Origin: Candidatus Heimdallarchaeota archaeon B3_Heim
Lineage (GTDB): Archaea; Asgardarchaeota; Heimdallarchaeia; Hodarchaeales; Hodarchaeaceae
Direction: 5' to 3'
Length of the DNA: 32,000 nucleotides
Assembly: GCA_003144275.1 (NCBI GenBank)
Contig: NJBF01000013.1
Coordinates: forward strand, 55,994 to 87,993
Shown here: positions 15,998 to 31,194 of the stretch, in pieces
Numbering within the stretch: the stretch's first letter is position 1
Layout of the letters: each line of letters starts with the position of its first letter
The notes under the pieces: model-generated
What the model was told of the DNA's origin: nothing
The model's input: the letters and a program-made list of their open reading frames with translations, nothing else
Databases searched by the model: none
Program-made: the position numbers and the translations under genes

Positions 15998-16059
15998 GTC
16001 TCAATGATGAGAACTTACCATACGGTATTTGATGACGACACCGTCCCAGTCTGAGAGAC
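15998..16059 (+). ncRNA. Box C/D methylation-guide sRNA, predicted to target the 23S rRNA P-loop (Gm2251) and the helix 71 loop
   Basis: Terminal stem GTCTC (15998-16002)/GAGAC (16055-16059); C box ATGATGA (16004-16010); C' box TTGATGA (16029-16035); D box CTGA (16051-16054). D guide ACCGTCCCAGT (16040-16050) pairs with conserved ACUGGGGCGGU with one G-U, and the D+5 rule points to G2251 (E. coli numbering). D' guide GAACTTACC (16011-16019) is complementary to GGUAAGUUC (E. coli 1949-1957). The D' box is degenerate, possibly CGGT. Confidence 0.85.
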
Positions 16060-16140
16060 CAGAATTGATAGGATTCTTACATTCTAATCCTCTAATCCAG
16101 TTTCGAGCCCTATTACTGTCATTCAACTGGAGAACGGCAA

Positions 16141-17025
16141 TTAGTTGCTTTGTGTGCGTGTTTTTCTTTGAGCACTGAAGCGTTCAAAGTCCTGCACTAT
16201 TAAGTTGGCAATTACTATGAGATGATTGTGTAGTGTCGTATGTCCATGATTCATGGATTCATTCAATAGCTTCAATTCCTTACTTTCATATATATATCTA
16301 TAGAGATTCCAGATATTTGTGTTAGTCACCTCCTGTATGTTCTTGGCTAATTTGATGAAGTTTATTTTTTGTAATGTCCGTTTGGCTTGCCAATTATATC
16401 GACTGATTACGGGAGAGCGAATCTTACGGGTGATACTTGCGGCTAATCGATCATAATATTGAAATTTTCTAATCAATGGGTCATTAGTTTTTTCGTGATG
16501 TTGTTGTAATCGTTTCACTAATGATTGATCTGTTAGTGGGGGTTCTTGATAGATTTTTGATTGATGTTTAGAGGTATGAAAAAAATCATGCAGCAGAGCG
16601 TATTTCAGTAGTTCCTGTTGTTCTATTGAGAGTTTTAATGGTAAACCTTTTCTGATCCTTAATTTTGGGGTTTTTATTTTCACTCGTGAATCTGTTGGTT
16701 TATTTTGGAATGAAATTCTTGTCCATTGAATCTCTCCTAGCCCCTCACCCTGTAATTTTCCTAGATGTGTGAGCTGAAGGAGAGTAATTAATTTGTGTTT
16801 TAGATTTTGCAGCGATTCATGGCGATATTCTAATGTCAGTTTTCCTAAATAACAGATGAATGAATACGGATACATTGGTTTGGCTGTTTGGATTTTTGTG
16901 TAATACCGTCGCCGTGGATTCTGGATCATAGCTTTACATCCGTGAATTTTAAAATGTGTTTTCTTTGTTATTATCGGTGTAATTAGTCGTCCTTCGAGAA
17001 GAAAACCGTTATTTCCAGAATTCAT
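16141..17025 (-). CDS. Cas5-like RAMP fused to a Cas10-type (circularly permuted) HD nuclease
   Basis: N-terminal ~100 aa: strand ITPI and G-rich loop LTHLGKLQGEGLGEIQW. C-terminal: ALLHDFF (H146-D147), QQHHE, YDRLAAS and displaced His motif TTLHNHL (H268). Confidence 0.7.
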   Translation of the reverse strand: MNSGNNGFLLEGRLITPIITKKTHFKIHGCKAMIQNPRRRYYTKIQTAKPMYPYSFICYLGKLTLEYRHESLQNLKHKLITLLQLTHLGKLQGEGLGEIQWTRISFQNKPTDSRVKIKTPKLRIRKGLPLKLSIEQQELLKYALLHDFFHTSKHQSKIYQEPPLTDQSLVKRLQQHHEKTNDPLIRKFQYYDRLAASITRKIRSPVISRYNWQAKRTLQKINFIKLAKNIQEVTNTNIWNLYRYIYESKELKLLNESMNHGHTTLHNHLIVIANLIVQDFERFSAQRKTRTQSN

Positions 17026-17037
17026 CCTTTAATACAC

Positions 17038-17937
17038 CTATTTTGGAGACTCTTGTGATTTTTTTACATATTTTGTCCATTCTGCTATAGAATTCAGAAA
17101 TTCTTGTGATAATGGGGTTTCTGATATTTGCTCTTCTATTTTAAATTCCTGATTATCGCCTAATATCGGTTTGCGGGTCATGATTCTATCAACCAATGTC
17201 AGTGATTGAACTTCGAGTTGGGCATAACCCGCATTGTATCCTCGTCCTAATTTCTGCATATACATTGCTGATTCAATTAGTAATCCAAGTTCCGCAAGTG
17301 AACATTTAGAAACATCAATTTCAAACTCGAATTCTCCTGCAAAGTACCGTTCTCCAAAGTCTTGAATTGCTCCTCCATCATATGATAATGCTACTCGTTT
17401 TTCTGTCGCAATATGGACATTCTGTAACTTATACTTACTTTGAAAGGTTTTTTGACTAATATTAGCTATGGGGTTTGCAGATACTCGTATTTTACTTGTA
17501 TGTCTCTTAGAACCGAACACTGCATGAACAATACACTCGTTCGATTCAGTACAACTTCCTATCAAATGAAAACCATTTGGAAGTAATGATTTACCCTTTC
17601 GATCAGTTTCCTTATCAGATGTATGACATACTTCTAGTCCTCGTTCTTTACAATGATACATTACTTGATGACGTAATGCTCCTCTTAACCCTTTAATGAA
17701 ATACGCAGTTGCTGAGCTTTCCTTATATTCCTTTCCATATTTATATTTATAGGGAAATGTCCATAATTTTAAAAAGTGTGCTTGATTAGATCCTGGAATA
17801 GCACCATTCAAAGGTTTGCAGATTGATGTAAACACTTTAACTTTCAAAATCTTGCTATCAATAGCGATTTGGACATCATCAAGAATCCCAAGCAAAGATT
17901 CAGATTTAAGACTTGATCTAGAAACGCTTTTTGCCAT
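17038..17937 (-). CDS. cas7: Cas7-family RAMP (Csm3/Csf2-like backbone subunit)
   Basis: IKGLRGALRH, Cys cluster ending ECIVHAVFGS, KIRVS, YFAGEFEFEI, ELGLL and C-terminal G-rich loop LGRGYNAGYAQLEV. Confidence 0.8.
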   Translation of the reverse strand: MAKSVSRSSLKSESLLGILDDVQIAIDSKILKVKVFTSICKPLNGAIPGSNQAHFLKLWTFPYKYKYGKEYKESSATAYFIKGLRGALRHQVMYHCKERGLEVCHTSDKETDRKGKSLLPNGFHLIGSCTESNECIVHAVFGSKRHTSKIRVSANPIANISQKTFQSKYKLQNVHIATEKRVALSYDGGAIQDFGERYFAGEFEFEIDVSKCSLAELGLLIESAMYMQKLGRGYNAGYAQLEVQSLTLVDRIMTRKPILGDNQEFKIEEQISETPLSQEFLNSIAEWTKYVKKSQESPK

Positions 17938-18665
17938 TATTTACATGCCTCCTCTTTCTTAGGCTTGTTTGCTGACGAATGCTTTTTCGACTGGACACGA
18001 TAGCAACGCTTTTGGAAAGCTTTCTGTTGAATCGTGGGAGCCAGGTACTTATGATTAGTTTTCAAGTCTTGAGGGACAATGAATAATCGTGTCCTATGAG
18101 GCATAAGGTAAGTAAGCCATTCCTCTGCAGGCATCAATAACCGCTCGTTTGTTGATACTAAGAGGTCTATAAATTGAGCACGGCAAAGATCGATGATCTC
18201 ATAGTGGAGTAAATCAGCGACATAATCCCAAAGCCTAACGCCTTCTAATCCTAAGTGCTCTAAGTGCCTAATAAGAGAGGGAGAATCACAGCCAATATCT
18301 AGTAACACTCTCCGAGGTCTTGGATTTGCTTTCTTACCTTTATATATAGATGAATCAGGAATCTTGTTTTTAATTGTGGAAACTAGAATCCCCCCACGAA
18401 TACTTTTGATCGCTAGAACAGCATTAATGATTGAATGATCAACCCAAAATACAAAAGTATGACGTAAACTACGGGTGGGTTTCGAGAAAAGAAGGCCTTG
18501 ATTTTTCCACGAATGTATTTGCTGAAGAATAGATAGATTTTGAGTAACAATTGAAATCATTTCATTTAAAGAATAATAACCAAGAATCCAATCATTTAAC
18601 TGAAATTGGCATTCATAGAAAGAGGAATTGGGAGAATTAAGCATTTTTCCATCACCAAAGGTCAA
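17937..18665 (-). CDS. Two-domain protein with C-terminal PIN-like (DUF5615/Mut7-C-like) domain
   Basis: VLLDIGC..LIRHLEHLG and EII..C....DLLVSTNERL resemble the DUF5615/Mut7-C pattern, but some acidic residues are substituted. Stop overlaps the cas7 start (TAATG). True start may be ATG at 18644 (GGTGAT upstream). Confidence 0.45.
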   Translation of the reverse strand: MTFGDGKMLNSPNSSFYECQFQLNDWILGYYSLNEMISIVTQNLSILQQIHSWKNQGLLFSKPTRSLRHTFVFWVDHSIINAVLAIKSIRGGILVSTIKNKIPDSSIYKGKKANPRPRRVLLDIGCDSPSLIRHLEHLGLEGVRLWDYVADLLHYEIIDLCRAQFIDLLVSTNERLLMPAEEWLTYLMPHRTRLFIVPQDLKTNHKYLAPTIQQKAFQKRCYRVQSKKHSSANKPKKEEACK

Positions 18666-19123
18666 CGAATCACCTCCTCGGTTTTAGCTGCTAAGGAAAA
18701 ATATCGTTGAAGATGCTCACAAAGTGCCTGTTGAGAAAAAAAGATATGATCCACCGAAGGCATGAGACGAATTAGAGTATAGGTTAGGGGTTCCAGAATA
18801 GGAGAATGAGTTTCGAAAAGGACCCACATTGTGAGAGAAGAATAATGCTTTTTCAATTGAAGACTTTTAGCTTCGAGAGAAACAGCTTTATTGCGAAACG
18901 CAACATAATATTTTTCCATGCTAGAAAAAGAGCACTCTAAGATCGTCTGTTGAGGGAGAAAAAAGTCAACAATATAGTGACGATCAGGTAAAGAAAAAAT
19001 CTTTTGAAATTCAAAGGGGATATTCTCAGAGTGCATTAGTTGTTTTAGTTGTAACTCTTGCCAGGTAGTACAAGAGGAACGAGGAGAAAAATTTTTATTT
19101 ATTTGGGATTCCATACAATACAA
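18662..19123 (-). CDS. PD-(D/E)xK nuclease, DUF559/Vsr-like
   Basis: TWQE.QL..LM....IPFEFQK......YIVDFF.....ILE matches the DUF559/very-short-patch pattern. Stop overlaps or abuts the next ORF. Confidence 0.65.
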   Translation of the reverse strand: MYCMESQINKNFSPRSSCTTWQELQLKQLMHSENIPFEFQKIFSLPDRHYIVDFFLPQQTILECSFSSMEKYYVAFRNKAVSLEAKSLQLKKHYSSLTMWVLFETHSPILEPLTYTLIRLMPSVDHIFFSQQALCEHLQRYFSLAAKTEEVIR

Positions 19124-19130
19124 CTCCGTA

Positions 19131-19171
19131 TTAAATGAATACTAAATAATGCTAGATATATATTCATTTAA
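19131..19171. promoter_or_regulatory. 11-bp perfect inverted repeat in the divergent Cas-module promoter
   Basis: TTAAATGAATA (19131-19141)/TATTCATTTAA (19161-19171), 19-nt spacer, 8 nt upstream of the operon's first ORF. Confidence 0.5.
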
Positions 19172-19350
19172 AAATCTTTAAACCGTCAAGAAGCGCTGGA
19201 TTTCAGTTCATTTGGCTATTGGAAGGTTTTAAAGTGGTTTTATTCGTCTTTAGTGAAAAACGTCAGACCAGTGATAATCTGGTGTAAATCGAATTAATTC
19301 CATCTTAATTCCTAAAAGAACCAGTCAGATAAAACTTCCAAGCAATCTAC

Positions 19351-22341
19351 GTGATCAACATGGCTGTTCAGTTGGAAACAAATAATAATGGATCATTTCT
19401 TTCTTCGTTACTACAAATGGGTCCTCATTTTGAATCGTTTCTTCGTCTGGTATTGAAAACTAGTTCTTTCGTTAGAACTCAGGATGAATTTTCTCTCCAT
19501 GTCCAGTCATTATGGCAGAAGTATTTAGGAAAACTAGTGGATCCAGTTTTTTCAACGAAAATAATTAGATTACTCCGCTTAACTGGCCTTCTCAAGCGTA
19601 AATATTACCAACGATCCGTTCTTGGTACCTTTCTGCTTGCGTACAACCTGAATATTTTTGTTTATCTTCAGGTATTCCATACTGATCTTTCATTCATGCT
19701 TGATAGACATCAAACCCCAAAAGTTTCCTTAAAAAAATTCCAACCTTTATTGTTGTCCTATAGCAAGTGGTACATTAATATATTACAGCATGAGTATTCA
19801 GGATGGAAACTCCAAGTCTTTCAAGATGTTTTCTGTTTAGCATTTGACTGGTATTCCGACAAAGATTGCTTGAAAGCCGCTGTTCGGCCTCTTCTCAAGG
19901 ATCATCTAAAAATACTCTATCAACAGTTTGAGTCAACTCGTAAAGCAAGGAGGAAAACGAGGAGTATCCCTATCCATCAATCAACGAAAGAACCATTTAT
20001 ATTCCCCAAAATTCAACATGGGGAGAGGGGGTTAGTCCTTGTAAAAGTGTTAACTGAAATCTATGATTGGATAACAGCATACACCTCCAAGAAAGATGAG
20101 AATTTTACGAAAAACTATGATCCCCCCTTTTTTGACATTCTCATTCATGCTAAAAAAGCAAGGGTCACATATAGGGATGAGGAGGGAGATATTGACATTG
20201 TTAAAGCAGTTCCTATTCCTCAATATACACGAGCTGTTACGTGGATTCTTAAAAGGGAAATCACCAGGCGAGAGAAAATATTTCTCACTAAAACTGTCTC
20301 TCTACAACAAATCGATAAGCTCGGGATAAAGGCATTAGAACTGATTACCCTCATCCGTAAGCATTTGGTGATGAAGTATATCAAAATCTGTCCTAATAAA
20401 AAACGACGCGTATTGGCATTTAATTTCACAAGTAAACTCATAGATCGACCTCTGGGTCAGCAAAGAAAAATGCTAGATTTTACTTGTGGGTGTTGTAAAT
20501 ACCTTGGAACCTACACGAAAATTGATTGTTTATTCTTTAAGAAACTCGAATACTTGGTTTCACTCGGCTACATCACCATTCCTGACTATTTAAAATCACT
20601 CTACGTAGATCGAATTAAACCGATTTTCTCTACGAAAGTCGCTTGTCCTTTTTTAAAGTTGAAAAAAGACTTTCCACTCCAATTATCAGTCATTAGAGGA
20701 GAGAAATTATCCTGTGCTTTCTGTCAAACTCCTCTGGAGACCGTTCCAGTTTCCAAATCTCCAGTTCTTTGCCAGTGTACCGCTCTGTACTCGTTTATTT
20801 CTTCCAAAATGACAGGAAATAATGTCTATCACTGTCAGTTTACAGATCAACAATTGAATCTTTCAGAACACGGAAAACATGAAATATATATCAATACATT
20901 GGTAGAACAAGACTATAAGCGGATAGAAAAACCTAAACTGAAGAAAGAACAAGTTTTTCAAACTCAAAGTAGCAAAATCAAGCGTTTTTCCAAAAAGCGA
21001 ACTGGTTACATTTACATCCATGAAAGTGATACTATTTATTACGCCCAAGGACAAAAACAACTACTCGTTAATCAAATCGCTTATCACACAGCTTCATTAA
21101 ATCTTGTTGATACCGAGAAATGGAATCTCACTCTACAAAATACTGCAAATAATAATCCCCACTTGGAATTTAATTATCGTCCAGATAACACTAATCTGGC
21201 TAGGGAGGACAAAGTGACTTTAGTCACTGATAGGATACCAATCCTTCAAATTAAACGACCGCGAAAAAAAGAAGTAGAGACCTATCCCCTTCAACAGCTC
21301 CGAACAGTCTATAATGTGGGGAAACCACGCTTAAACAAGGTTTTCAAAAAATGGGGGGTAGAAGTCATTCATTCCTCTGTAAAGGGCGTTTTAAAAGAAC
21401 CCACGGAGGAGATCAAAGAAGCTATGCAGCTTCCAGGAGTGCGACGAACACTCCAACAGCTCCATGTCCAAGGGTTGATGGTCTCGTTAATGAATGCGAC
21501 CTATTATCTGATGAAACTCGCACTCTTATATGAGAAAAAGTGGTTAGCTGATCGTTATCATTACTGGATGAATAACTTACTCTTGCAATGTCCCACAAAG
21601 CTCGAGAATTATTATCAGGATGCATCCGTAAAATCATTCCGACAAGTGTCAGTATTAGAGGCGTGGTTTTCACGGCCATTTGCAGAGGGAGTCCGTAAAT
21701 TTGTGCAGATAATTCAAGATCAGAACCATCCGTTAGTCCAACGTCCTTATGGTCGGGCTGTTGCCCGACGTGTTAATAAAGAGGAAAAACAAGGAGTGGA
21801 TTATATGGGAGGGTATACAGCGTATGATGCCGCATTAAATTGTGTGAATCGGCGGTTAAGACACCAATTACGCATCTGGAATGCGAAAAGAGGGTTAGGG
21901 TTTCACACGATTCCATTGTTTGTGCATACTGCGAAAGACAACCCTGGACGAGCGGGTCATCTGGATCTTGAAGAAGTAGGAAGAATCCTTTCCCGTCTGA
22001 CATTATGTGAAGCAATTGCCGAAGAACAAATCAGTCCCTTCTCTTTTCAACGGCGATATGATGATGATACCCTTCCCTATTATGTACCTAAAGAACAGTT
22101 AATTAGATGGTTACGCGGAGTGCTTGTAAAAAAAGGGATATTTCCAAAAAAGCTATTCTACAACGATCAATGGATGACTTTTGAAAGAGCTCACAAATGG
22201 CATGTTCAGCATCTCTGTTCGTGTCTAGAAAGAGCATTAGACTATACTGATTATACTTCGCGGCGGATGTTTTTGCAAAGCAGCTATCAACCCCTAATCT
22301 TCATACCAGATTTTGCTGAGTTTGAATCACGTGTGGGTTAG
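19351..22341 (+). CDS. cas1: Giant divergent Cas1-family integrase: ~620-aa N-terminal region with Cys clusters plus C-terminal Cas1 domain
   Basis: Cas1 N-lobe YPLQQLRTVYNVG....KWGVEVI...KG (from aa 645). Catalytic-lobe motifs VLEAWFSRPF (E770), YDAALN (N830), GL...LFVH (H859), HLDLEEVGR (D872/E875). Upstream Cys clusters C379-C381-C382-C393 and C455-C458-C474-C476. Start may be ATG at 19360. Confidence 0.78.
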   Translation: MINMAVQLETNNNGSFLSSLLQMGPHFESFLRLVLKTSSFVRTQDEFSLHVQSLWQKYLGKLVDPVFSTKIIRLLRLTGLLKRKYYQRSVLGTFLLAYNLNIFVYLQVFHTDLSFMLDRHQTPKVSLKKFQPLLLSYSKWYINILQHEYSGWKLQVFQDVFCLAFDWYSDKDCLKAAVRPLLKDHLKILYQQFESTRKARRKTRSIPIHQSTKEPFIFPKIQHGERGLVLVKVLTEIYDWITAYTSKKDENFTKNYDPPFFDILIHAKKARVTYRDEEGDIDIVKAVPIPQYTRAVTWILKREITRREKIFLTKTVSLQQIDKLGIKALELITLIRKHLVMKYIKICPNKKRRVLAFNFTSKLIDRPLGQQRKMLDFTCGCCKYLGTYTKIDCLFFKKLEYLVSLGYITIPDYLKSLYVDRIKPIFSTKVACPFLKLKKDFPLQLSVIRGEKLSCAFCQTPLETVPVSKSPVLCQCTALYSFISSKMTGNNVYHCQFTDQQLNLSEHGKHEIYINTLVEQDYKRIEKPKLKKEQVFQTQSSKIKRFSKKRTGYIYIHESDTIYYAQGQKQLLVNQIAYHTASLNLVDTEKWNLTLQNTANNNPHLEFNYRPDNTNLAREDKVTLVTDRIPILQIKRPRKKEVETYPLQQLRTVYNVGKPRLNKVFKKWGVEVIHSSVKGVLKEPTEEIKEAMQLPGVRRTLQQLHVQGLMVSLMNATYYLMKLALLYEKKWLADRYHYWMNNLLLQCPTKLENYYQDASVKSFRQVSVLEAWFSRPFAEGVRKFVQIIQDQNHPLVQRPYGRAVARRVNKEEKQGVDYMGGYTAYDAALNCVNRRLRHQLRIWNAKRGLGFHTIPLFVHTAKDNPGRAGHLDLEEVGRILSRLTLCEAIAEEQISPFSFQRRYDDDTLPYYVPKEQLIRWLRGVLVKKGIFPKKLFYNDQWMTFERAHKWHVQHLCSCLERALDYTDYTSRRMFLQSSYQPLIFIPDFAEFESRVG

Positions 22342-22375
22342 ATATTTTTACAACGAATTCAAAAATAGGGGGAAA

Positions 22376-22405
22376 AAGACCCTTCCTTTTAGGAGGAAGA
22401 GTTTT
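22376..22405. terminator. Hairpin between convergent cas1 and subtilase genes
   Basis: AAGAC-C-CTTCCT/AGGAAG-A-GTTTT stem (about 11 bp, one mismatch, one G-U) with A-run and T-run flanks. Confidence 0.4.
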
Positions 22406-22423
22406 AGGGCTTTATGGAATATT

Positions 22424-24553
22424 TTACCATTCCTTTTTATCCAAAAGAATTCCATTACCAACAAAGACATTGAGGGGGGTAGTAACGATATCATACACCT
22501 CAAATATCCCTGACATGGTGTAAAGATGCCAGATATGGACCCAAGAATGAGTAGGAACATGAAAGATTTCATCGCCAACTTTTAAATCCTGGGGATTAAT
22601 CAGCCATCCACAATAGGTCTCATTACGCATATATATCGGTTGATTAACAGGGGTGACCCTTAATAAACCGTAATCGTGGACGATTATCAGGAGGGAGGAA
22701 ACCGTTGATGATTCTATTTCAGTCACTTGAACAGGTACATCTGTTCCTGACGTCAGGTTATAGCCGAGAACCCAATCACCGAGTTGAAGATTCTGAACGA
22801 ATTTCCACTGATAGCCTTCAGCAAGAGAAATCCGAGTCCACTTGGCAACACATCCACCACCACCGCCGCCACCACCACCACCTGGAATCTCATGATAAGT
22901 AAGTGTATCTTCTTGGTTAATGACGTTATCAGTGGAATCACTGATAATTGTCCACCGAATTTGGATACTATCTCCAGCATTTAGATTGGCAATGGTCAGA
23001 TTAATATCTTCTTCACCAACACTGTAAGGGTCAGTTTGTGTCACATCATATTGCCATGCCCCAGCATTAATTTTATAGTCTACACGAAGAGTGTAATAAT
23101 CCTCCAAAAATATTTTAACTTTTGTTGAAGATGACACAGTATTATTGGTGTAATGTGCTACCGACGTATACTGATGATCTATTTCTCCGCCGAGAAGAAA
23201 TTTAACCCCATCATAGGCATCAATAGTTCCGTAGCCAATTTCTTCGTATTTTGGTGGATTACTGGGGAAAGGTGAATTGGGTGAACATTCAGGGACTGTG
23301 GTTTCATTAATTTCCTCTGCTGCCCTCCATAAGTTATGAAGAATGTCGTTGTAGTCGTTCGATTTCGTCTTATCACGGGCATAATCACAAGTGGCCACTG
23401 CATATGCTACTATCGCGGCAACATGAGGACATGCATAACTTGTGCCGTCTACAACGATGGGATTATAGTTATGATCACGGGTTTCATAGTCATACCCAGG
23501 TGCAACGAATTCTACGGATGAAAAACAGTTTTTTGGAGCTGGACTCGAATTATACATCGACCCCCATTCATTCATTAGACTAAATGAGACTCTCTGTCCA
23601 CTATAATTCATAGCATTACTATTTTCCAATATCTTATCCGCATCATCAAAATGGGCCCCTATCCCCCAGACATTGGTATAGCTTCTTGGGTAGACCATCA
23701 TGTCTTCATGATCATCTTCATTGCTATCATCATAATTCCCTGATGCAGCTAAGCAAATTACACCTTCACTCTTAAGAAAATTGATATATGTTTCAATATC
23801 ATCCCTATTAGATTCGAAATACAACTCGTCATTATCAATTCGAAAACTCATTGATACTATATCTAACTCTGAATGATCTTGATAATGGTCAACTAGCCAC
23901 GCCAATGCCCCTTCCATAACGGTACTTTTCTTCGCATTATAAGCATTAAAAGGATAGGTGTCTAGAATCCAGAATTTAACTCCTGGGGCCGCCTGTGCTA
24001 AGGCCCAGGCAACGGATGAGCCATGTTTTGTTATATCCAGTTCAATGTTTAAATTATCCAGATTATCATTCAATGTCTCATTATCGTAAATGACTGTACT
24101 ATTTTCACACGTATTGCCTCCAGCTTCTACTGGGGTGAATTTAATGTATAGTTCAATCTCACATCCAGTTTCATCTTCAATCTTCCCCCACATTTTCGGC
24201 GAAATACCCGTGTCAATTATGGCGATGACGATATTATTAAGCTCAGAATTGGATTTCCCTAAAAAAGTCTCGTGTTCTGGTCCACTGGTTTGACCCCACC
24301 GTGATTGAACTGAATAATATAGATCTTGGAAAGCAATATTGTTCCACGCTAATGCTTCTTCATCAAGACCATCACCACCAGAATATGACTGCAACCCCGA
24401 AGAGTCCCCAATATAATATCCAGAATACTGACCGACGCAAGCTCTAAATGATAAAATATTAGGTAAAAACATGCCACCTGAAAGGAGGAAGAGGAAAATT
24501 GCAGTAAAGCTATTTTTATTGTTAAAATTAAGGTTCTTTTTTCTTATGTCCAA
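22424..24553 (-). CDS. Secreted S8 (subtilisin-like) peptidase with beta-sandwich domain, poly-Gly linker and C-terminal Hint domain
   Basis: Hydrophobic N-terminal signal; triad IAIIDTG (D114), KHGSSVA (H177), GTSYACPHVAA (S372); oxyanion AASGN. Nine Gly precede C568, which starts CVAKWTRISLAEG...LQLGDWVL...LKVGDEI...VYDI...GNGIL. Confidence 0.85.
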   Translation of the reverse strand: MDIRKKNLNFNNKNSFTAIFLFLLSGGMFLPNILSFRACVGQYSGYYIGDSSGLQSYSGGDGLDEEALAWNNIAFQDLYYSVQSRWGQTSGPEHETFLGKSNSELNNIVIAIIDTGISPKMWGKIEDETGCEIELYIKFTPVEAGGNTCENSTVIYDNETLNDNLDNLNIELDITKHGSSVAWALAQAAPGVKFWILDTYPFNAYNAKKSTVMEGALAWLVDHYQDHSELDIVSMSFRIDNDELYFESNRDDIETYINFLKSEGVICLAASGNYDDSNEDDHEDMMVYPRSYTNVWGIGAHFDDADKILENSNAMNYSGQRVSFSLMNEWGSMYNSSPAPKNCFSSVEFVAPGYDYETRDHNYNPIVVDGTSYACPHVAAIVAYAVATCDYARDKTKSNDYNDILHNLWRAAEEINETTVPECSPNSPFPSNPPKYEEIGYGTIDAYDGVKFLLGGEIDHQYTSVAHYTNNTVSSSTKVKIFLEDYYTLRVDYKINAGAWQYDVTQTDPYSVGEEDINLTIANLNAGDSIQIRWTIISDSTDNVINQEDTLTYHEIPGGGGGGGGGGCVAKWTRISLAEGYQWKFVQNLQLGDWVLGYNLTSGTDVPVQVTEIESSTVSSLLIIVHDYGLLRVTPVNQPIYMRNETYCGWLINPQDLKVGDEIFHVPTHSWVHIWHLYTMSGIFEVYDIVTTPLNVFVGNGILLDKKEW

Positions 24554-26082
24554 ACCCTCAAGAAAATATAATTGGTTTCAGAAAATATTTTAATTAGAGG
24601 GTGGGAACTCTTATAAGTTTTCCTTGTGAGTACAAACGTGAGGATTTGAAGAAAACAACGTGATTTTGGTGATGACGACACGTGTGGAAAAGATTTCCGT
24701 GTATCCCTATAATCAACAAATTTCTCCTAGTTTTACTCATATTGAGTGGAATTTACTCTCCAGTATTGTCAGCTCAGAGTATCCATGACCCAACTCATGG
24801 ATTCTCTAAGTCTGTTTCTCGGGGAGGGACGTCTTCAAGCTCTAATATGAATCTTACTGAGGGGGATATGCTATGGAATCAAACATACGATTATGCAAGA
24901 ACTAAAGATTTAGCCTTTTCCGTCATCGAAACAGCTGACAAAGGGTTGGCTATTGCTGCAAGAGTTTTTTATATAGATGGGGAGATTTGGGATCAGGATG
25001 GCCTCTTAATCAAAACTGATGCTGTTGGAGAAGTGCAATGGACTCAATCGTATGGTGGGAATCGAACGGAATATGCGCGTGATGTCATCCAAACAGCTGA
25101 TGGGGGGTTTGCGATGGCAGGCTCAACCAGTACGAATAGTACAGGGCGGACGGACGGGTGGTTAGTCAAAACCTCATCTGGGGGGGAAGAAGAATGGAGT
25201 CAGCAGTATGCAGGCATTGACTTTGATGACTTTAATGCTTTGATTCAAACCCGAGAGGGCGGGTATGCTCTAGCTGGGCAGCGGAATTTTAACGCGTGGA
25301 TTGTCAAGACTGATCCGAGAGGCAAGAAGGAATGGGCACATACACTTGGAAGAGGCGGATTTGGGAGAGCCCAAGACATTATCCAAACAATGGATAGAGG
25401 ATATTGTGTGGTAGGGTCTTGTGGGAACTTACTTAATTATGATTTATGGGTAATCAAACTAGCTAAGAATGGAACGGTAGAATGGAACCGTACCTATAAT
25501 TCGATACGAGGGAAAACGCCTGATGATCATGGATACTCGGTTATTCAAACCGCGGATAGGGATTTTGTCCTCTTTGGGGATACGGTGAATCTTCATAATG
25601 AGACAGGAACTGATTTTTGGCTTGTCAAAACAGATGCGGCTGGTGTGCCCCTATGGAATCGTACCTATGGAGAGGAGGGAACTGAAAGCTTATATGCAGG
25701 AATTAAAACGATAGATGGAGGATTCGCTTTAACGGGCTATACGAATTCCTTTGGTGTAGAACGCAGTGATTTTTATTTGGTGAAAACGGATGCCCAAGGC
25801 GTGTTGGAATGGAACCGTACATATGGGACATCTTATTGGGAGGAGGCCCGATCTCTTGTCCAGACTTCAGATAGCGGATTCGTCCTAGTTGGTATGTTAC
25901 GTCCCCCAATTGCTGGCTCAACACCGAACACGAACATTTGGTTTGTCAAAGTGAAAGGTCGGGGAGTCCCTCCTTCGTCTACTCCCTCCTTTTGGATCTT
26001 GTTTTTCTTCCCAACAACACTAGTCCTCGGTTGCTTAGTCCTTTTTTTCTCTTCTAAACGCAAACGAAGAATCAATGAATAA
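24467..26082. repeat. Copy 1 of a ~1.6-kb diverged direct duplication
   Basis: Aligns with 29247-30868 (offset about 4780) across the subtilase 5' end, the intergenic region and the whole propeller gene, including a 63-nt exact match (25611-25673 = 30406-30468). Confidence 0.9.
24682..26082 (+). CDS. Membrane-anchored 7-bladed beta-propeller surface protein, copy 1
   Basis: Signal peptide; seven ~50-aa repeats W-x2-TYG...QT.DGG..L.G....WLVKTD..G; many N-x-S/T sequons; Pro/Ser/Thr linker, TPSF, TM helix and KRKRR tail. GTG start with GGTGA SD. Confidence 0.8.
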   Translation: MWKRFPCIPIINKFLLVLLILSGIYSPVLSAQSIHDPTHGFSKSVSRGGTSSSSNMNLTEGDMLWNQTYDYARTKDLAFSVIETADKGLAIAARVFYIDGEIWDQDGLLIKTDAVGEVQWTQSYGGNRTEYARDVIQTADGGFAMAGSTSTNSTGRTDGWLVKTSSGGEEEWSQQYAGIDFDDFNALIQTREGGYALAGQRNFNAWIVKTDPRGKKEWAHTLGRGGFGRAQDIIQTMDRGYCVVGSCGNLLNYDLWVIKLAKNGTVEWNRTYNSIRGKTPDDHGYSVIQTADRDFVLFGDTVNLHNETGTDFWLVKTDAAGVPLWNRTYGEEGTESLYAGIKTIDGGFALTGYTNSFGVERSDFYLVKTDAQGVLEWNRTYGTSYWEEARSLVQTSDSGFVLVGMLRPPIAGSTPNTNIWFVKVKGRGVPPSSTPSFWILFFFPTTLVLGCLVLFFSSKRKRRINE

Positions 26083-26151
26083 AGATCCCCAGAGGTCTTC
26101 ACAAAATTGGTTAATTCACCAAGTTCATAAATTATTCCGCTTTCTTCGAGT

Positions 26152-29133
26152 TTATAATTTGTACGGATCCTCAATGGCGATCAACGATTCCCAGGGATCA
26201 TCAAAGGTGCTAAAGCCAAACAAACCGATCCAACCCTCGTTTTGGGGAGATAACCAATAATTCCTTGCAGAAGGGACACCGAGAGAATATTGTTCCCGGT
26301 TACAAAATCCCTTATGAAGGTGGCCAGACACTATTATGTCATTTATTCGTACTCTTTTCCCTTTCACAGGTTTTGTCAAGTTCTCTCGCCAGTTCTGAAT
26401 CTCCTTTCTAGTGATTCCAGGTTTATCCAGATATAGTTCCATTTTAGAATTATGCCCATGAATAAAGATCAGATCCCGATAAGGTTTGAGAGACCAGCGG
26501 ATGTCTATCGAGGTATTAATGGGTTTTCGCCAACGAAAATACCGGATATCATAATCATGGTTCCCCAAAATAAAAATCGTCTTGTGGAGCAGGCCTAATT
26601 CATCTAATATTTCATAAAGAATGAATAGTTGAGCTCGTGCAACAGTATAATCATAAGCAGCTAATCGATCAATAGTGTCTCCGAGAAAGATGATTACCGA
26701 GGCATTTTTCAGGGGTTTTACTTGAGTATAACAAAACTTTCGAAAATCAACCTCCTGACCGTTGATTGTGATTGGATGGCCAGTTAAATGCAGATCAGCA
26801 ATGCACCCCACAGTGAAATGGTAATCGTTTAGATACTTGTGAAAGCGGTTTTTAGTTTCCTGATAAAGCATTTGTATCGTACCACTTGGTTTTTTCTTCT
26901 TTGTTATCTTTTTTCGAGTCTTTTTTGGCTGTATCCATTGGTGGTACAACATGGATGCTAGATCAAGTCTGCTGGTGTCAATTAGCAGTGTTCCTACCCC
27001 CAGTTCTTCATGATAACAGGTAGTTGATCGAAATACTGACCGATCAATATTAAGTTTGTCACAGTATTGTCGGATTTTCCTTTCCACTGGTACGGTAATC
27101 TTCTTCTTCTTAATAAATATCCCCGTATAATCGCTACTCTGAGCTAGCGGGACATTGGGTAAGTCAAATGATCCAGTTCGGATATCTTTCTTTGTCACTT
27201 GTTCTGTTTCAATGACTTCAACAAGGGCAGCATTAATTTTTAGGTCGTGTGCTAAGATTTCGGTGGCAGTTATCGTTTTTTTAACTTTGTTTTGTATGGC
27301 GTGTAAATCAAGATATCCCTCTATTACATACACGATTTTTTTTGTAGGATCGATTTCAACGATTTGATAAGTATCATCAATAAAAGCGATAGTTTGACTT
27401 GGTAGTCCTCTACGAAATAGTTCCGAGAGACTGATCGTACCGAGTTTCTTCTCTTTCGAAGATTTAGTTCGTAATATGACCGTATAGAGTTCTGTCCCAA
27501 ACCGTCTGGGAAACGCATGAATCCACTCCTTTGTTGTGGCTGTAGGACATATCTGCTCATCCGAACCCACTGTAACGACATGTTCGTTGAGTAGTCTAAG
27601 ATAGGCCTGTTTTACTTCCTGATGAAAGCTTGGGTCATCATTCCCATAAAAACCCTTCTTCAACCGATCTAGAATATCCCAGAACCCGAACACCACTCCC
27701 ATAACAATGGCATACTGCAATATTAACAGAGTATAAAGGGGTGTTTGGAATGGAGGAGGTTCCTCTTGAAAAATAAAGTGTGCTAGAGTGTTAATATCAG
27801 CTGATTTATCGTTTTCAAAACTATTCACTGCCCGTAAGATAATATCAACCTTCCCTTCCTGTGTGGGATCACGATTGGCACGGCCTCGTTGTTGAAGATA
27901 TTCACGGTCACTTCGGGGAATGCCATAGAAAATCACCCAAGAAGCATCAGGGATATCTAGCCCTGACTGAATGATACTGGTAGCGACCAGACAGATTTTA
28001 AGTCGATTACAACGAAAATTATGAATTCTTTTCGCCACGGTGGGAGTAGGCATATCACCATGCACTGTAGTAAAATAGTTAGAAAAAGTACCTAGAAGTG
28101 TTTCAATATCGATATAACGCTTATTATTCAAAAATAAAATGATCTTTCGGGGGACATACTTGTTTCCTGGCGTAATTTTCGCACGTTCCGCTTGAATATA
28201 GGTTTTTACTTCCTGAATAAAATATTCTAAAAGCCTTTGAGGATCATCCTCACGATAGACGTTAATATGAGTGGTTCCTCGTCGTCCCAAGCCCGTTAGA
28301 TCTAGATACTCACTTTCTGGCCCAAAAAACAAGGTGGCAAACCGATCAGGATTACTCACGGTCGCAGAGGAGAGAATCACTTTTATTTCAGGATTTTTCC
28401 AAATTAAGTAACGCACGAAGATCGACAAACAGAGTAACGCTGGAAGCGGATACGAATCGACTTCATCAATCAAGATAATGGCAGGAGAAGAAAGTTTTTT
28501 GGCCCATTGAACATTATGTGTCGAAAACACTTTCCCCCACATATCTCGATCACCCAGCTGATCTAGGACTTCTTGATGTTCGAGCTGGCCCATGAGGGAA
28601 AACTGCGTAAATGACCCTAACAGCATAAAGGGTGTCATAATAAACACAGCTGCGCGGTCCTTGCCCTCACGCACCTGATCTCGAATCAATGCATTCTCTT
28701 CTTCAGTATCCTTATAATAAGCTACAATTTGACGGGTATCACTAAGTCGTCTCATGTACGTAGCGAATTTATCTTTGAGTTCTTCCGCTAAGCCGCGCGT
28801 ATGCGCCAGGACAAAGGCATAAGAATCCTCCTTTAATGTCTCATGAAGAGTATAAACGCACATCGCCTCACTTTTACCACGCGCGGTTTTTCCACGAAGA
28901 ACGTAAAACTGATGACCAGATTTAGCAAGTATTTCATGCTCGATCAAAGGACGACGTTTTTGAAAAAAATCCAGTTCAAGATCGGAAGTGTAACACTCCA
29001 GAAACTCTGAATACGGCGTAGTGGAATAATCCTCCTCGAGAGGTTCAGTACTCTCCAGGATACCTCCCAAAATAGACACAGGAGGAGAACGAACAGCGTG
29101 TTTTCCACGATGTCGGGTAGATCTACTAGCCAT
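26152..29133 (-). CDS. SF2 DEAD/DEAH helicase (MrfA/YprA/Hrq1- or Lhr-like) fused to a C-terminal calcineurin-like metallophosphoesterase
   Basis: Q motif DFFQ, Walker A GKTARGKS, IDEVD, SSAT, ATSIIQSGLDIP, QQRGRANR. C-terminal ADLH (about aa 780), GDTID, GNHD, HGH and SGHLH. Confidence 0.85.
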   Translation of the reverse strand: MASRSTRHRGKHAVRSPPVSILGGILESTEPLEEDYSTTPYSEFLECYTSDLELDFFQKRRPLIEHEILAKSGHQFYVLRGKTARGKSEAMCVYTLHETLKEDSYAFVLAHTRGLAEELKDKFATYMRRLSDTRQIVAYYKDTEEENALIRDQVREGKDRAAVFIMTPFMLLGSFTQFSLMGQLEHQEVLDQLGDRDMWGKVFSTHNVQWAKKLSSPAIILIDEVDSYPLPALLCLSIFVRYLIWKNPEIKVILSSATVSNPDRFATLFFGPESEYLDLTGLGRRGTTHINVYREDDPQRLLEYFIQEVKTYIQAERAKITPGNKYVPRKIILFLNNKRYIDIETLLGTFSNYFTTVHGDMPTPTVAKRIHNFRCNRLKICLVATSIIQSGLDIPDASWVIFYGIPRSDREYLQQRGRANRDPTQEGKVDIILRAVNSFENDKSADINTLAHFIFQEEPPPFQTPLYTLLILQYAIVMGVVFGFWDILDRLKKGFYGNDDPSFHQEVKQAYLRLLNEHVVTVGSDEQICPTATTKEWIHAFPRRFGTELYTVILRTKSSKEKKLGTISLSELFRRGLPSQTIAFIDDTYQIVEIDPTKKIVYVIEGYLDLHAIQNKVKKTITATEILAHDLKINAALVEVIETEQVTKKDIRTGSFDLPNVPLAQSSDYTGIFIKKKKITVPVERKIRQYCDKLNIDRSVFRSTTCYHEELGVGTLLIDTSRLDLASMLYHQWIQPKKTRKKITKKKKPSGTIQMLYQETKNRFHKYLNDYHFTVGCIADLHLTGHPITINGQEVDFRKFCYTQVKPLKNASVIIFLGDTIDRLAAYDYTVARAQLFILYEILDELGLLHKTIFILGNHDYDIRYFRWRKPINTSIDIRWSLKPYRDLIFIHGHNSKMELYLDKPGITRKEIQNWRENLTKPVKGKRVRINDIIVSGHLHKGFCNREQYSLGVPSARNYWLSPQNEGWIGLFGFSTFDDPWESLIAIEDPYKL

Positions 29134-29246
29134 TGTCCTTCACTTCCTATGGTTCATCCACCTTTTATATTCAGAATCGCACAACAGTGATCACATCCAA
29201 TGTAAGGAGAAAAAGAAAAATCATAAAAAATGTGAAAAGACTAATT

Positions 29247-29332
29247 AAACATACAACCCGAATGGAAGAAGAGGATTAGAACAGTAAAGCTATCTTTATT
29301 GATGTACATTAGTTTCTTATTCTCATGTCCAG
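29247..29332 (-). pseudogene. Frameshifted relic of the 5' (signal-peptide) end of the subtilase gene
   Basis: Homologous to 24467-24553. Start TTG is now CTG, and a 1-nt deletion gives TAA at 29309-29311. The shifted frame reads INKDSFTVLILFFHSGCMF versus NNKNSFTAIFLFLLSGGMF. Confidence 0.75.
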
Positions 29333-29461
29333 ACCCTCAAAAGAATATACTAGATTTCAGAAAATATCTTGATTTGAGGGTAGTAATTCTTTTAAGTTTT
29401 ACTTGTAAATCAACTATGTGAAGATTTGTAGAAGTCAAAATGATTAAGGTGATAGCACCAC

Positions 29462-30868
29462 GTGTGGAGAAGATTTCTATTTATTCCCCGAAATAATATA
29501 TTTCTCCTAATTTTACTCATACTGAGTGGAATTTACTCTCCATTATTGCACGCCCAGAGGATCTATGGAACAATTTATGGATTTACAATATTTTCTTCTA
29601 GTGGAGGAACGTTTTCACGCTCTACAATTAATATCACAGAGGGAGAGATACTATGGGAGCAAATATTTGATTTTGAAATTAATGATTGGGCCTTTTCGAT
29701 TATTGAAACTTCTGATAATGGGCTGGCAATTGCTGCAAAAATATATTATGAGGAGGAGGGTATGTGGGATCAGGACGGTCTTCTGATCAAAACCGATAAT
29801 TTAGGAGAAGTGCAATGGACGCAAACGTATGGAGGTGAGGGAGTTGAATATGCGTATGATGTCATCCAAACGGTTGACGGGGGGTTTGCGATGACGGGTT
29901 CAACCACTACTAATAGTACAGGTCGGACAGACGGGTGGTTAGTCAAGACTTCACCCCAGGGGAAAGAAGAATGGAGCCAGCAGTATGCAGGAACGAGTTA
30001 CGATAAATTAAAAGGCTTGATTCAAACTCGAGAGGGGGGGTATGCCCTTGCTGGAGAAAAAAGTGATTCTGCCTGGATAATTAAGACAGATACTCTAGGA
30101 AACGAAGAATGGGTGCTTAGATTGGGATCAGGGAGTAAGGAAGCCCAAGAGATTATTCAAACAATGGATGGAGGATATGGTGTGGTAGGGTCTTGTGTTA
30201 TCATAAGTCATAATTTTCAAGTACATCAAGATTTATGTTTAATCAAACTAGCCAAGAATGGGAGCATTGAATGGAATCGAACTTATAACTCGATGATTTG
30301 GCAGAGTAGATTTCCAGCTGATTACGGATATTCAGTAACTCAAACTGCAGATGGTGGTTTTTTCCTCTTTGGGGATACTCATAATCTTCAAAACAGCACA
30401 GGGTATGATTTTTGGCTTGTCAAAACAGATGCGGCTGGTGTGCCCCTATGGAATCGTACCTATGGAGAAAAGGGAACTGAAAGCTTAAATGCAGGAATCC
30501 AAACCATGGATGGGGGGTTTGCTTTAACTGGGTATACGGATTCCTTTGGTGTAGAACACAGTGATATTTATTTGGTTAAAACAGATGCCCAAGGTGTGCT
30601 GGAATGGAACCGTACATATGGGGCATTTGATTGGGAAGAGGCCTTCTCTCTTGTTCAGACTTCTGATAGTGGATTAGTTATATTGGGGAGGTCAAGTCCA
30701 CCATCTGCACCTGGCCCAGAAGGCAATACGAATATTTGGCTTCTCAAAGTGAAAGGTAGGGGAGTTCCTCCTTCAGCTCCTCCCTCTCTTTGGAACCACC
30801 CTTTTTTCCCAGTTACTCTATTAATCGGGTGTTTGACCCTTTTTCTCTTGATTAAACGTAAACATTAA
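29462..30868 (+). CDS. Membrane-anchored 7-bladed beta-propeller surface protein, copy 2
   Basis: Paralogue of 24682-26082 with the same repeats, signal peptide, TM helix and KRKH tail. GTG start with GGTGA SD. Confidence 0.8.
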   Translation: MWRRFLFIPRNNIFLLILLILSGIYSPLLHAQRIYGTIYGFTIFSSSGGTFSRSTINITEGEILWEQIFDFEINDWAFSIIETSDNGLAIAAKIYYEEEGMWDQDGLLIKTDNLGEVQWTQTYGGEGVEYAYDVIQTVDGGFAMTGSTTTNSTGRTDGWLVKTSPQGKEEWSQQYAGTSYDKLKGLIQTREGGYALAGEKSDSAWIIKTDTLGNEEWVLRLGSGSKEAQEIIQTMDGGYGVVGSCVIISHNFQVHQDLCLIKLAKNGSIEWNRTYNSMIWQSRFPADYGYSVTQTADGGFFLFGDTHNLQNSTGYDFWLVKTDAAGVPLWNRTYGEKGTESLNAGIQTMDGGFALTGYTDSFGVEHSDIYLVKTDAQGVLEWNRTYGAFDWEEAFSLVQTSDSGLVILGRSSPPSAPGPEGNTNIWLLKVKGRGVPPSAPPSLWNHPFFPVTLLIGCLTLFLLIKRKH

Positions 30869-31194
30869 ACCAACGAATGAAAAATCCTATATAACTCGTA
30901 TCCACTAATTTAAACTTAATCTCTGTATAATGGATTCCATTGCTGGTCTTAACAACCTCTTCTAGTTCATTTAAGGTTGATAGAATTGTCACGAGCTATA
31001 TCTGATCCATTTAAATCCTACCGTAGTATCCCAACTAGCGAGCAGTGTCTACATACTTAGAATTATAAAAACCAATATTGATCTGACTGATTTGTACTAG
31101 GGTTCCCCAGATACCATCACATACAGTGACTCTTTATCGGGGAAGGATGAGTAGAATTGGATAAGTTATACATAAATTATATTTCTTCTTCAGA

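Follow-up and report, generated by a model that had tools for sequence, protein, structure and literature searches.

A stretch of 32,000 nucleotides from Candidatus Heimdallarchaeota archaeon B3_Heim (contig NJBF01000013.1, positions 55,994 to 87,993 of the forward strand; hereafter the window) encodes a giant Cas1-like protein, which we call Cas1L. The fold of its C-terminus, the register of its catalytic residues and the existence of bridging sequences together lead to the conclusion that Cas1L ends in a genuine, very diverged Cas1. In structural models, residues ~553-996 are a complete two-lobe Cas1 fold, and to judge from the sequence the active site is apparently intact. The gene faces away from a small operon that includes Cas7-like and HD-like genes, with no array of clustered regularly interspaced short palindromic repeats (CRISPR) in the window. 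We suggest, with moderate confidence, that Cas1L is the "distinct Cas1" of an ARAMP-type cassette, i.e. one that is CRISPR-derived and array-less.

Cas1 fold and active site of a giant protein

The open reading frame (ORF) of Cas1L, described in an earlier note on this DNA, is open from a GTG at 19351, and it is from this codon that residues are numbered here. The probable true start is the ATG at 19360 (M4), where the homologues and a 993-amino acid (aa) database record begin, giving a protein of 993 aa. Conventional searches do not identify it. Cas1L had zero matches in Pfam, NCBIfam, PADLOC and the PDB sequences, also when three pieces were run against Pfam at an E value of 10; it does not reach the gathering score of the Pfam Cas1 family (PF01867), and a profile built from family alignment A3 had no match in the PDB.

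The proposal of the earlier note that the C-terminus would fold as Cas1 is borne out by structure prediction. An AlphaFold2 model of residues 641-996, based on an alignment of 21 sequences, had a mean predicted local distance difference test (pLDDT) score of 88.7 and a predicted template modelling (pTM) score of 0.84. When this model was compared with the PDB using Foldseek, the top 50 matches were all Cas1 or casposase, the best being 4n06_B (E 1.3e-7, template modelling (TM) score 0.60), with the casposase 6opm_B at E 2.4e-7. VIA-align superimposed 272 aa of the model on Archaeoglobus fulgidus Cas1 (4n06_B) with a Z score of 21.6 and a root-mean-square deviation of 3.6; the casposase gave Z 20.9, and 120 chains had a Z score of at least 8. 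Residues 610-681, which belong to the beta-strand lobe, matched the Cas1 N-domains of 7mi4, 5vvk, 4n06, 7kft and 6qxf (VIA-align Z 6.0-6.3). The size of the protein, its Cys clusters and its RAMP neighbours had also made it a candidate for a Cas10-like large subunit, a reading rejected on account of the Cas1 fold of the C-terminus. Complex prediction with two copies of residues 550-996, run without controls, gave a score of 0.00 that speaks neither for nor against dimerisation.

E770, H859 and D872/E875, picked out earlier as a potential active site, are present in the expected order. All four residues are invariant in the 21 aligned C-terminal regions, at identities down to 19%, and are invariant or nearly so across 21-23 homologues of 16-73% identity. 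Such conservation across 21 diverged sequences would be unexpected without selection on catalysis. When the family was aligned with ten canonical Asgard Cas1 proteins by hhalign, the four residues fell on the E, H, D and E columns of Cas1 (E 1.7e-4, probability 49%). Profile comparison of Cas1L with the PDB yielded a single match, again to the casposase 6opm and located at the H/D/E motif (E 0.31).

The family to which Cas1L belongs is small. When 1.84 billion representatives were searched exhaustively with HMMER, only 31 clusters related to Cas1L were found. Relatives are limited to metagenome-assembled genomes (MAGs) of Asgard archaea (Hod-, Thor- and Hermodarchaeota) plus one MAG labelled Hadarchaeota. 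MAGs of Hodarchaeota, with 65% identity, of Thorarchaeota and of Hermodarchaeota contain the closest homologues. Among the Asgard genomes sampled, 5 of 61 contain the family, often in more than one copy (six in genome G041, three in G033 and two in B3_Heim); canonical Cas1 occurs in 31 of the 61 genomes of the same phylum. The bridge to canonical Cas1 is formed by giant ORFs of 1325-1367 aa in G041 and G058 (loci L035 and L036). These pass the Pfam Cas1 cut-off and are also matched by the Cas1L family profile, with E values of 1e-12 to 1e-17 and at coordinates overlapping the Pfam match. The six ORFs of G041 that the profile detects consist of five in the 1325-1367 aa range and one of 782 aa; two of the ORFs also exceed the Pfam Cas1 cut-off. 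This multi-copy subfamily of giant Cas1 proteins might be mobile.

The part of Cas1L that precedes the Cas1 fold had been estimated at ~620 aa in the earlier note. This figure has to be corrected: in a model of residues 1-700 (pLDDT 78), the beta-strand lobe of Cas1 starts near residue 553, and the non-Cas1 extension is therefore ~550 aa long. The winged helices suspected there are recovered as two winged-helix-like domains with a helical domain between them (Table 1). VIA-align Z scores below 8 can mirror a common arrangement, and the winged-helix assignments are accordingly weak and made at the level of the fold. The model has several domains, and only VIA-align gave matches of the winged-helix type. 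Foldseek comparison with the PDB and with the AFDB clusters produced nothing better than E 0.03, and shape searches of the ESM Atlas and feature searches with this region had no usable match.

Both Cys clusters that had been reported, CGCC-x10-C and CAFC-x15-CQC, are present with four conserved Cys each, but C381 of the "CGCC" motif is not conserved in the family and does not belong to this set. On the pattern of their conserved residues, the two Cys4 clusters are most simply read as zinc sites. No reverse transcriptase, Cas4, Cas6, helicase or family B polymerase domain was recognisable in Cas1L using sequence libraries and Foldseek, in agreement with the earlier view that the known fusion partners of Cas1 are missing from this protein.

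The Cas1L cassette

Cas1L is transcribed divergently from a tight operon of four genes on the minus strand, N1-N2-N3-N4. Across five loci, only TATA-like A/T boxes are common to the intergenic region that separates the two transcription units, the remainder being kept between close relatives only. The five-gene arrangement is shared by two Hodarchaeota MAGs, another MAG and an ENA contig; the synteny of N1-N4 with a divergent Cas1L recurs in loci L007, L006 and L010 and on contig C38 of B3_Heim itself. The latter carries a second complete cassette (C38:555-7665, L019) with a Cas1L frame of 1353 aa, N1, N2, N3, N4 and the hairpin described below, which is only 31-50% identical to the cassette at 16.0-22.4 kb of the window.

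The most constant neighbour is N1, which adjoins Cas1L wherever a close or mid-range locus includes flanking sequence; it was not detected in the distant loci L012-L016. The clusters closest in shape to its Atlas model are DpnII, DUF559 and Mrr_cat (TM 0.59-0.68), which suggests a restriction-endonuclease fold at the level of a lead, and D53, E63 and K71 are invariant in the homologues. In Thorarchaeota (L004), N1 is fused to a 1104-aa protein. N2 is highly conserved and had no Pfam or PDB match, homologues included; a PIN-like character is a motif impression only. Comparison of N1, N2 and N4 profiles with PDB sequences yielded matches at chance level only, and the homologues of these three proteins had no Pfam match other than the weak one to HD given below for N4.

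N3 and N4 would make up the RAMP component of the cassette. N3 just exceeds the Pfam cut-off for PF03787 (E 1.3e-4, 23.0 bits compared with 22.1) and is matched by the PADLOC Csm3 profile (E 1.2e-5). For N4, the RAMP assignment comes from a motif, the G-rich loop GEGLGEI, and the C-terminus appears HD-like (LLHDFFHT...HGHTTLHNH), with H146, D147, H150, H154, H176, H177, H262 and H268 invariant; a weak match to the Pfam HD family (E 0.0018) was seen in one of three homologues. The RAMP genes are facultative, being absent from the Thorarchaeota locus L004 and from the Hodarchaeota locus L011. In the latter, N2 is followed not by RAMP genes but by an ORF of at least 391 aa (L011:1-1173, minus strand) that appears TnpB/OrfB-like from reading of the alignment.

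Directly 3' of N4 lies a conserved hairpin, which is present as a single copy per cassette in all four loci that contain N4. Its stem is UCCAGUU/AACUGGA in the window and CCGCUU/AAGCGG, CUUUACU/AGUAAAG and CUUUAUU/AAUAAAG in the other loci, and the conserved loop contains AAUGA...AGG(G)C..GGAA. The stem was recognised in folds of single sequences and by eye. RNAalifold predicted no consensus structure for the region, because the MAFFT alignment had placed the stem out of register. It is possible that the hairpin is an RNA partner of the RAMP proteins.

A gene 3.8 kb from Cas1L, separated from it by a protease gene and one member of a duplicated gene pair, encodes a fusion of a superfamily 2 (SF2) helicase with a calcineurin-like phosphoesterase. 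Homologues of this protein are found beside Cas1L in L010, L011, L009 and C38. In L010 it is split into ORFs of 679 and 428 aa, and on C38 a fragment is located at the contig edge. The helicase-phosphoesterase may thus also belong to the system.

Table 1. Positions of the Cas1L domains, the genes of the cassette and associated features in the window
Feature	Position	Strand	Basis or description
Cas1L (giant Cas1-like protein)	19351..22341	+	intact ORF, 996 aa counted from GTG
First winged-helix-like domain, residues ~20-112	19408..19686	+	PadR/MarR/RQC-type chains, Z 6-7.9, 76-90 residues aligned
Helical domain, residues ~124-200	19720..19950	+	1-700 model; no specific match
Second winged-helix-like domain (weak), residues ~224-361	20020..20433	+	kleisin, RNA Pol III subunit and MarR-like chains, Z 5.5-5.7
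Cys cluster 1, C379-x2-C382-x10-C393-x38-C432	20485..20646	+	each Cys at least 90% conserved
Cys cluster 2, Zn-ribbon-like, C455-x2-C458-x15-C474-x-C476	20713..20778	+	each Cys at least 90% conserved
Cas1 N-terminal beta-strand lobe, enlarged, residues ~553-690	21007..21420	+	strands 553-676 in model
Cas1 alpha-helical catalytic domain, residues ~695-990	21433..22320	+	model, alignment, structure matches
Codon of putative catalytic residue E770	21658-21660	+	
Codon of putative catalytic residue H859	21925-21927	+	
Codon of putative catalytic residue D872	21964-21966	+	
Codon of putative catalytic residue E875	21973-21975	+	
Divergent promoter region	19124..19350	.	A/T-rich core ATATATT..TTTATAAA..CTTTAAAG kept in five loci
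N1, 153 aa, restriction-endonuclease PD-(D/E)xK fold	18662..19123	-	Atlas model, pTM 0.77
N2, 242 aa, highly conserved	17937..18665	-	start overlaps N1 stop by 4 nt
N3, 299 aa, Cas7-like (Csm3-like) RAMP	17038..17937	-	PF03787, PADLOC Csm3
N4, 294 aa, RAMP-like N-terminus and HD-like C-terminus	16141..17025	-	weak
Conserved hairpin directly 3' of N4	16072..16140	-	7-bp covarying stem, conserved ~22-nt loop
SF2 helicase fused to calcineurin-like phosphoesterase, 993 aa	26152..29133	-	Pfam

Relation to known systems and possible function

The components of an ordinary CRISPR-Cas system were sought in the whole B3_Heim assembly (3.95 Mb, 94% complete). A six-frame Pfam search of the genome detected no canonical Cas1, and neither Cas4 nor standard RAMP genes were found genome-wide. 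Cas2 is absent from the ORFs of the window, and the best match to PF09827 in the genome (E 0.09) is below the cut-off. No CRISPR array is present in the window, nor was one found beside the Cas1L gene in the homologous loci inspected. A k-mer scan of the genome, which required exact 18-mers and was applied to a type of assembly in which arrays are often left out, gave one repeat-like region only. This region (C93:6725-7163), with a 69-nt period, looked CRISPR-like to the scan and was rejected, as it encodes leucine-rich repeats (LSALPESIGNLKRLERLDL).

ARAMP is reportedly a class of systems that Makarova et al. catalogued computationally in 2020, in CRISPR J 3:156. As described in reviews by the discoverers, these are CRISPR derivatives of many Asgard archaea that are distantly related to the HRAMP systems of haloarchaea (PMC8730458); they are array-less and derived from type III, have a distinct Cas1 and are typically associated with HNH or PD-(D/E)xK nucleases (PMC8730458; PMC12669027). 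The Cas1L cassette shares with them the Asgard host, the lack of an array, a Cas1 of very diverged sequence and a putative associated nuclease of the PD-(D/E)xK type; its highly diverged RAMP genes, which appear to be Cas7-like and RAMP/HD-like, would be a further point in common. It thus appears to be a further example of ARAMP, a kind of system already known by computation, rather than an unprecedented architecture. Three features go beyond what is mentioned in those reviews: the partner of Cas1L in all close and mid-range loci with flanking sequence is N1 and not the RAMP pair, an SF2 helicase-phosphoesterase is a recurrent neighbour, and the Cas1 itself has ~550 aa that probably form winged-helix, helical, winged-helix and two zinc domains, in this order. 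HRAMP, reportedly presented by Makarova et al. in 2019, is similarly array-less, with a highly diverged Cas5/Cas7 module and added nucleases, and differs in that it is described without Cas1 and in Haloarchaea (PMC8730458).

Two groups of better known enzymes share the fold. The Cas1 proteins of CRISPR adaptation (A. fulgidus 4n06; the Cas4-Cas1-Cas2 complexes 7mi4 and 8d3p) have the same two lobes (Z ~20-21.6) and the same E/H/D/E site. By contrast, Cas1L is three times larger, is without Cas2, an array or similarity at the level of Pfam, and has an enlarged N-lobe and an additional N-terminal region that appears suited to DNA binding. The casposase of Methanosarcina mazei (6opm) is a Cas1-fold integrase that is likewise independent of Cas2 and of arrays. 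Here, the extra domain is a C-terminal helix-turn-helix, whereas the additions to Cas1L are winged-helix and zinc modules at the N-terminus, and neither a family B polymerase nor the terminal inverted repeats of a casposon were found around the gene.

On the ARAMP reading, Cas1L would be active as a metal-dependent enzyme that cleaves DNA and carries out strand transfer. Its winged-helix and zinc domains would choose the DNA substrate, and so replace Cas2 as well as the recognition of leader and repeat. Together with the N1 nuclease, and often with the helicase-phosphoesterase, Cas1L would form one arm of a defence-type island, devoted to DNA processing. The Cas7-like/RAMP-HD pair, probably in complex with the hairpin RNA, would be a second arm that can be separated from the first. 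Cas1L would feed no spacers into a CRISPR array. The suggestion in the earlier note that the extra domains may recognise DNA ends or targets or dock the RAMP complex, making Cas1L a self-sufficient integrase, is at present conjecture.

A number of points weigh against this reading, which we nevertheless consider the best explanation. Cas1L stays below the Pfam threshold for Cas1, the hhalign probability of its alignment with canonical Cas1 is only the value given above, and the assignments of the N-terminal domains, all with Z scores below 8, are weak. The role in defence is taken from genomic context only. Its identity with the ARAMP Cas1 group is based on secondary descriptions and not on a comparison of sequences, and the literature searched contained neither experimental work on ARAMP nor biochemical work on any member of the Cas1L family. 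Since the RAMP genes are absent from L004 and L011, the term "ARAMP" may not apply to the family as a whole. Finally, the apparent lack of arrays has to be read with the properties of MAG assemblies and of the 18-mer scan in mind.

The resemblance to casposases might indicate a mobile element instead. Cas1L would then be the transposase of a self-moving, casposon-like cassette devoid of a polymerase, the ends of which would be recognised by the winged-helix and zinc domains. The sporadic occurrence of the family, its multiple copies in some genomes and the flanking genes, which differ in every locus, would fit such an element, as would the structural and profile matches. However, no terminal inverted repeats bracket 16.0-22.4 kb in a gapless search that could miss short or degenerate ones, no tRNA is present in the window, and Pfam scans of window ORFs of at least 80 aa revealed no family B polymerase. 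The cassette is, moreover, tightly bordered by a gene for an RNase P subunit on one side and by the protease gene on the other, and the low identity of the two B3_Heim cassettes points to old paralogues or separate acquisitions and not to recent transposition. We regard a transposase as unlikely. A DNA-repair or end-processing factor, unrelated to defence or mobility, is in our view distinctly unlikely: the patchy Asgard distribution and the variable neighbourhoods are unlike those of a core repair pathway, and the link to RAMP and HD genes points to a CRISPR-derived system, even if the nuclease fold of N1 and the helicase-phosphoesterase, beside Cas1L in four loci and near it in the window, would be fitting companions for such a factor.

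There is little prospect that Cas1L serves as a bona fide adaptation integrase for an array elsewhere in the genome or left unassembled. Although its catalytic site seems intact, arrays are often lost from MAGs and half of the phylum genomes sampled (31 of 61) have canonical Cas1, the missing Cas2, Cas4, canonical Cas1 and standard RAMP genes, the leucine-rich-repeat coding nature of the sole repeat-like region and the lack of arrays beside homologous genes all speak against it. That no canonical CRISPR-Cas genes were detected in the genome also makes it largely untenable that Cas1L serves an ordinary array in trans. We also give only a slim chance to a bolder model, in which Cas1L is a self-targeting, Cas2-independent integrase whose winged-helix and zinc domains direct captured DNA to a site beside the hairpin 3' of the RAMP-HD gene, where the Cas7-like/HD complex would read this one-unit, array-less "memory". 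If true, insertion beside the hairpin would amount to adaptive immunity in a minimal form that differs from CRISPR arrays. Least probable of all is that the Cas1 fold has been kept as a scaffold or DNA-binding module in a pseudo-enzyme or regulator; the extreme divergence of the protein, which has no Pfam match, and its large additions of DNA-binding character would be compatible with this, but not the four catalytic residues that are invariant in 21 sequences.

Under the favoured ARAMP assignment, the cassette is of interest for several reasons. ARAMP is among the few CRISPR derivatives that keep a Cas1 without an array or Cas2. The locus is a clean and intact representative, and it is accompanied by a second, diverged copy in a genome in which no canonical CRISPR-Cas genes were detected. 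Handles for experiments are available in the form of the domain boundaries, the four catalytic residues, the two Cys4 sites, N1, the helicase-phosphoesterase and the covarying hairpin. If Cas1L is a Cas2-independent integrase directed by sequence, it would bear on the recruitment of Cas1 from casposases and might be of use as a tool for DNA insertion.

Other features of the window

The genes for ribosomal protein L15e, the RNase P subunits Rpp30 and Pop5, NFACT and DUF2095 mark the window as archaeal. In a search of sequencing runs, only small-share matches among DNA runs were found, all from one marine-sediment study, and no RNA run. Two weak Rfam matches were recorded. One, to the archaeal C/D-box sRNA family sR22, is at 16000-16056 on the plus strand, just after Pop5 (21.4 bits, E 0.87, below the gathering score). 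The other, to SNORD12, extends across the start of Cas1L at 19315-19406 on the minus strand (28.6 bits compared with a gathering score of 43, E 0.019) and is probably due to chance.

The GC content of the window is 35-43%. Midway through Cas1L it climbs from ~0.35-0.37 to 0.39-0.43 and stays in this range thereafter (approximately 20000-31000). The helicase-phosphoesterase gene is flanked by direct repeats (24467-26083 and 29247-30881) of 71-85% identity that are located 4.78 kb apart. These repeats correspond to paralogous genes of 466 and 468 aa with their upstream regions, the products of which have weak matches to SBBP beta-propeller domains.

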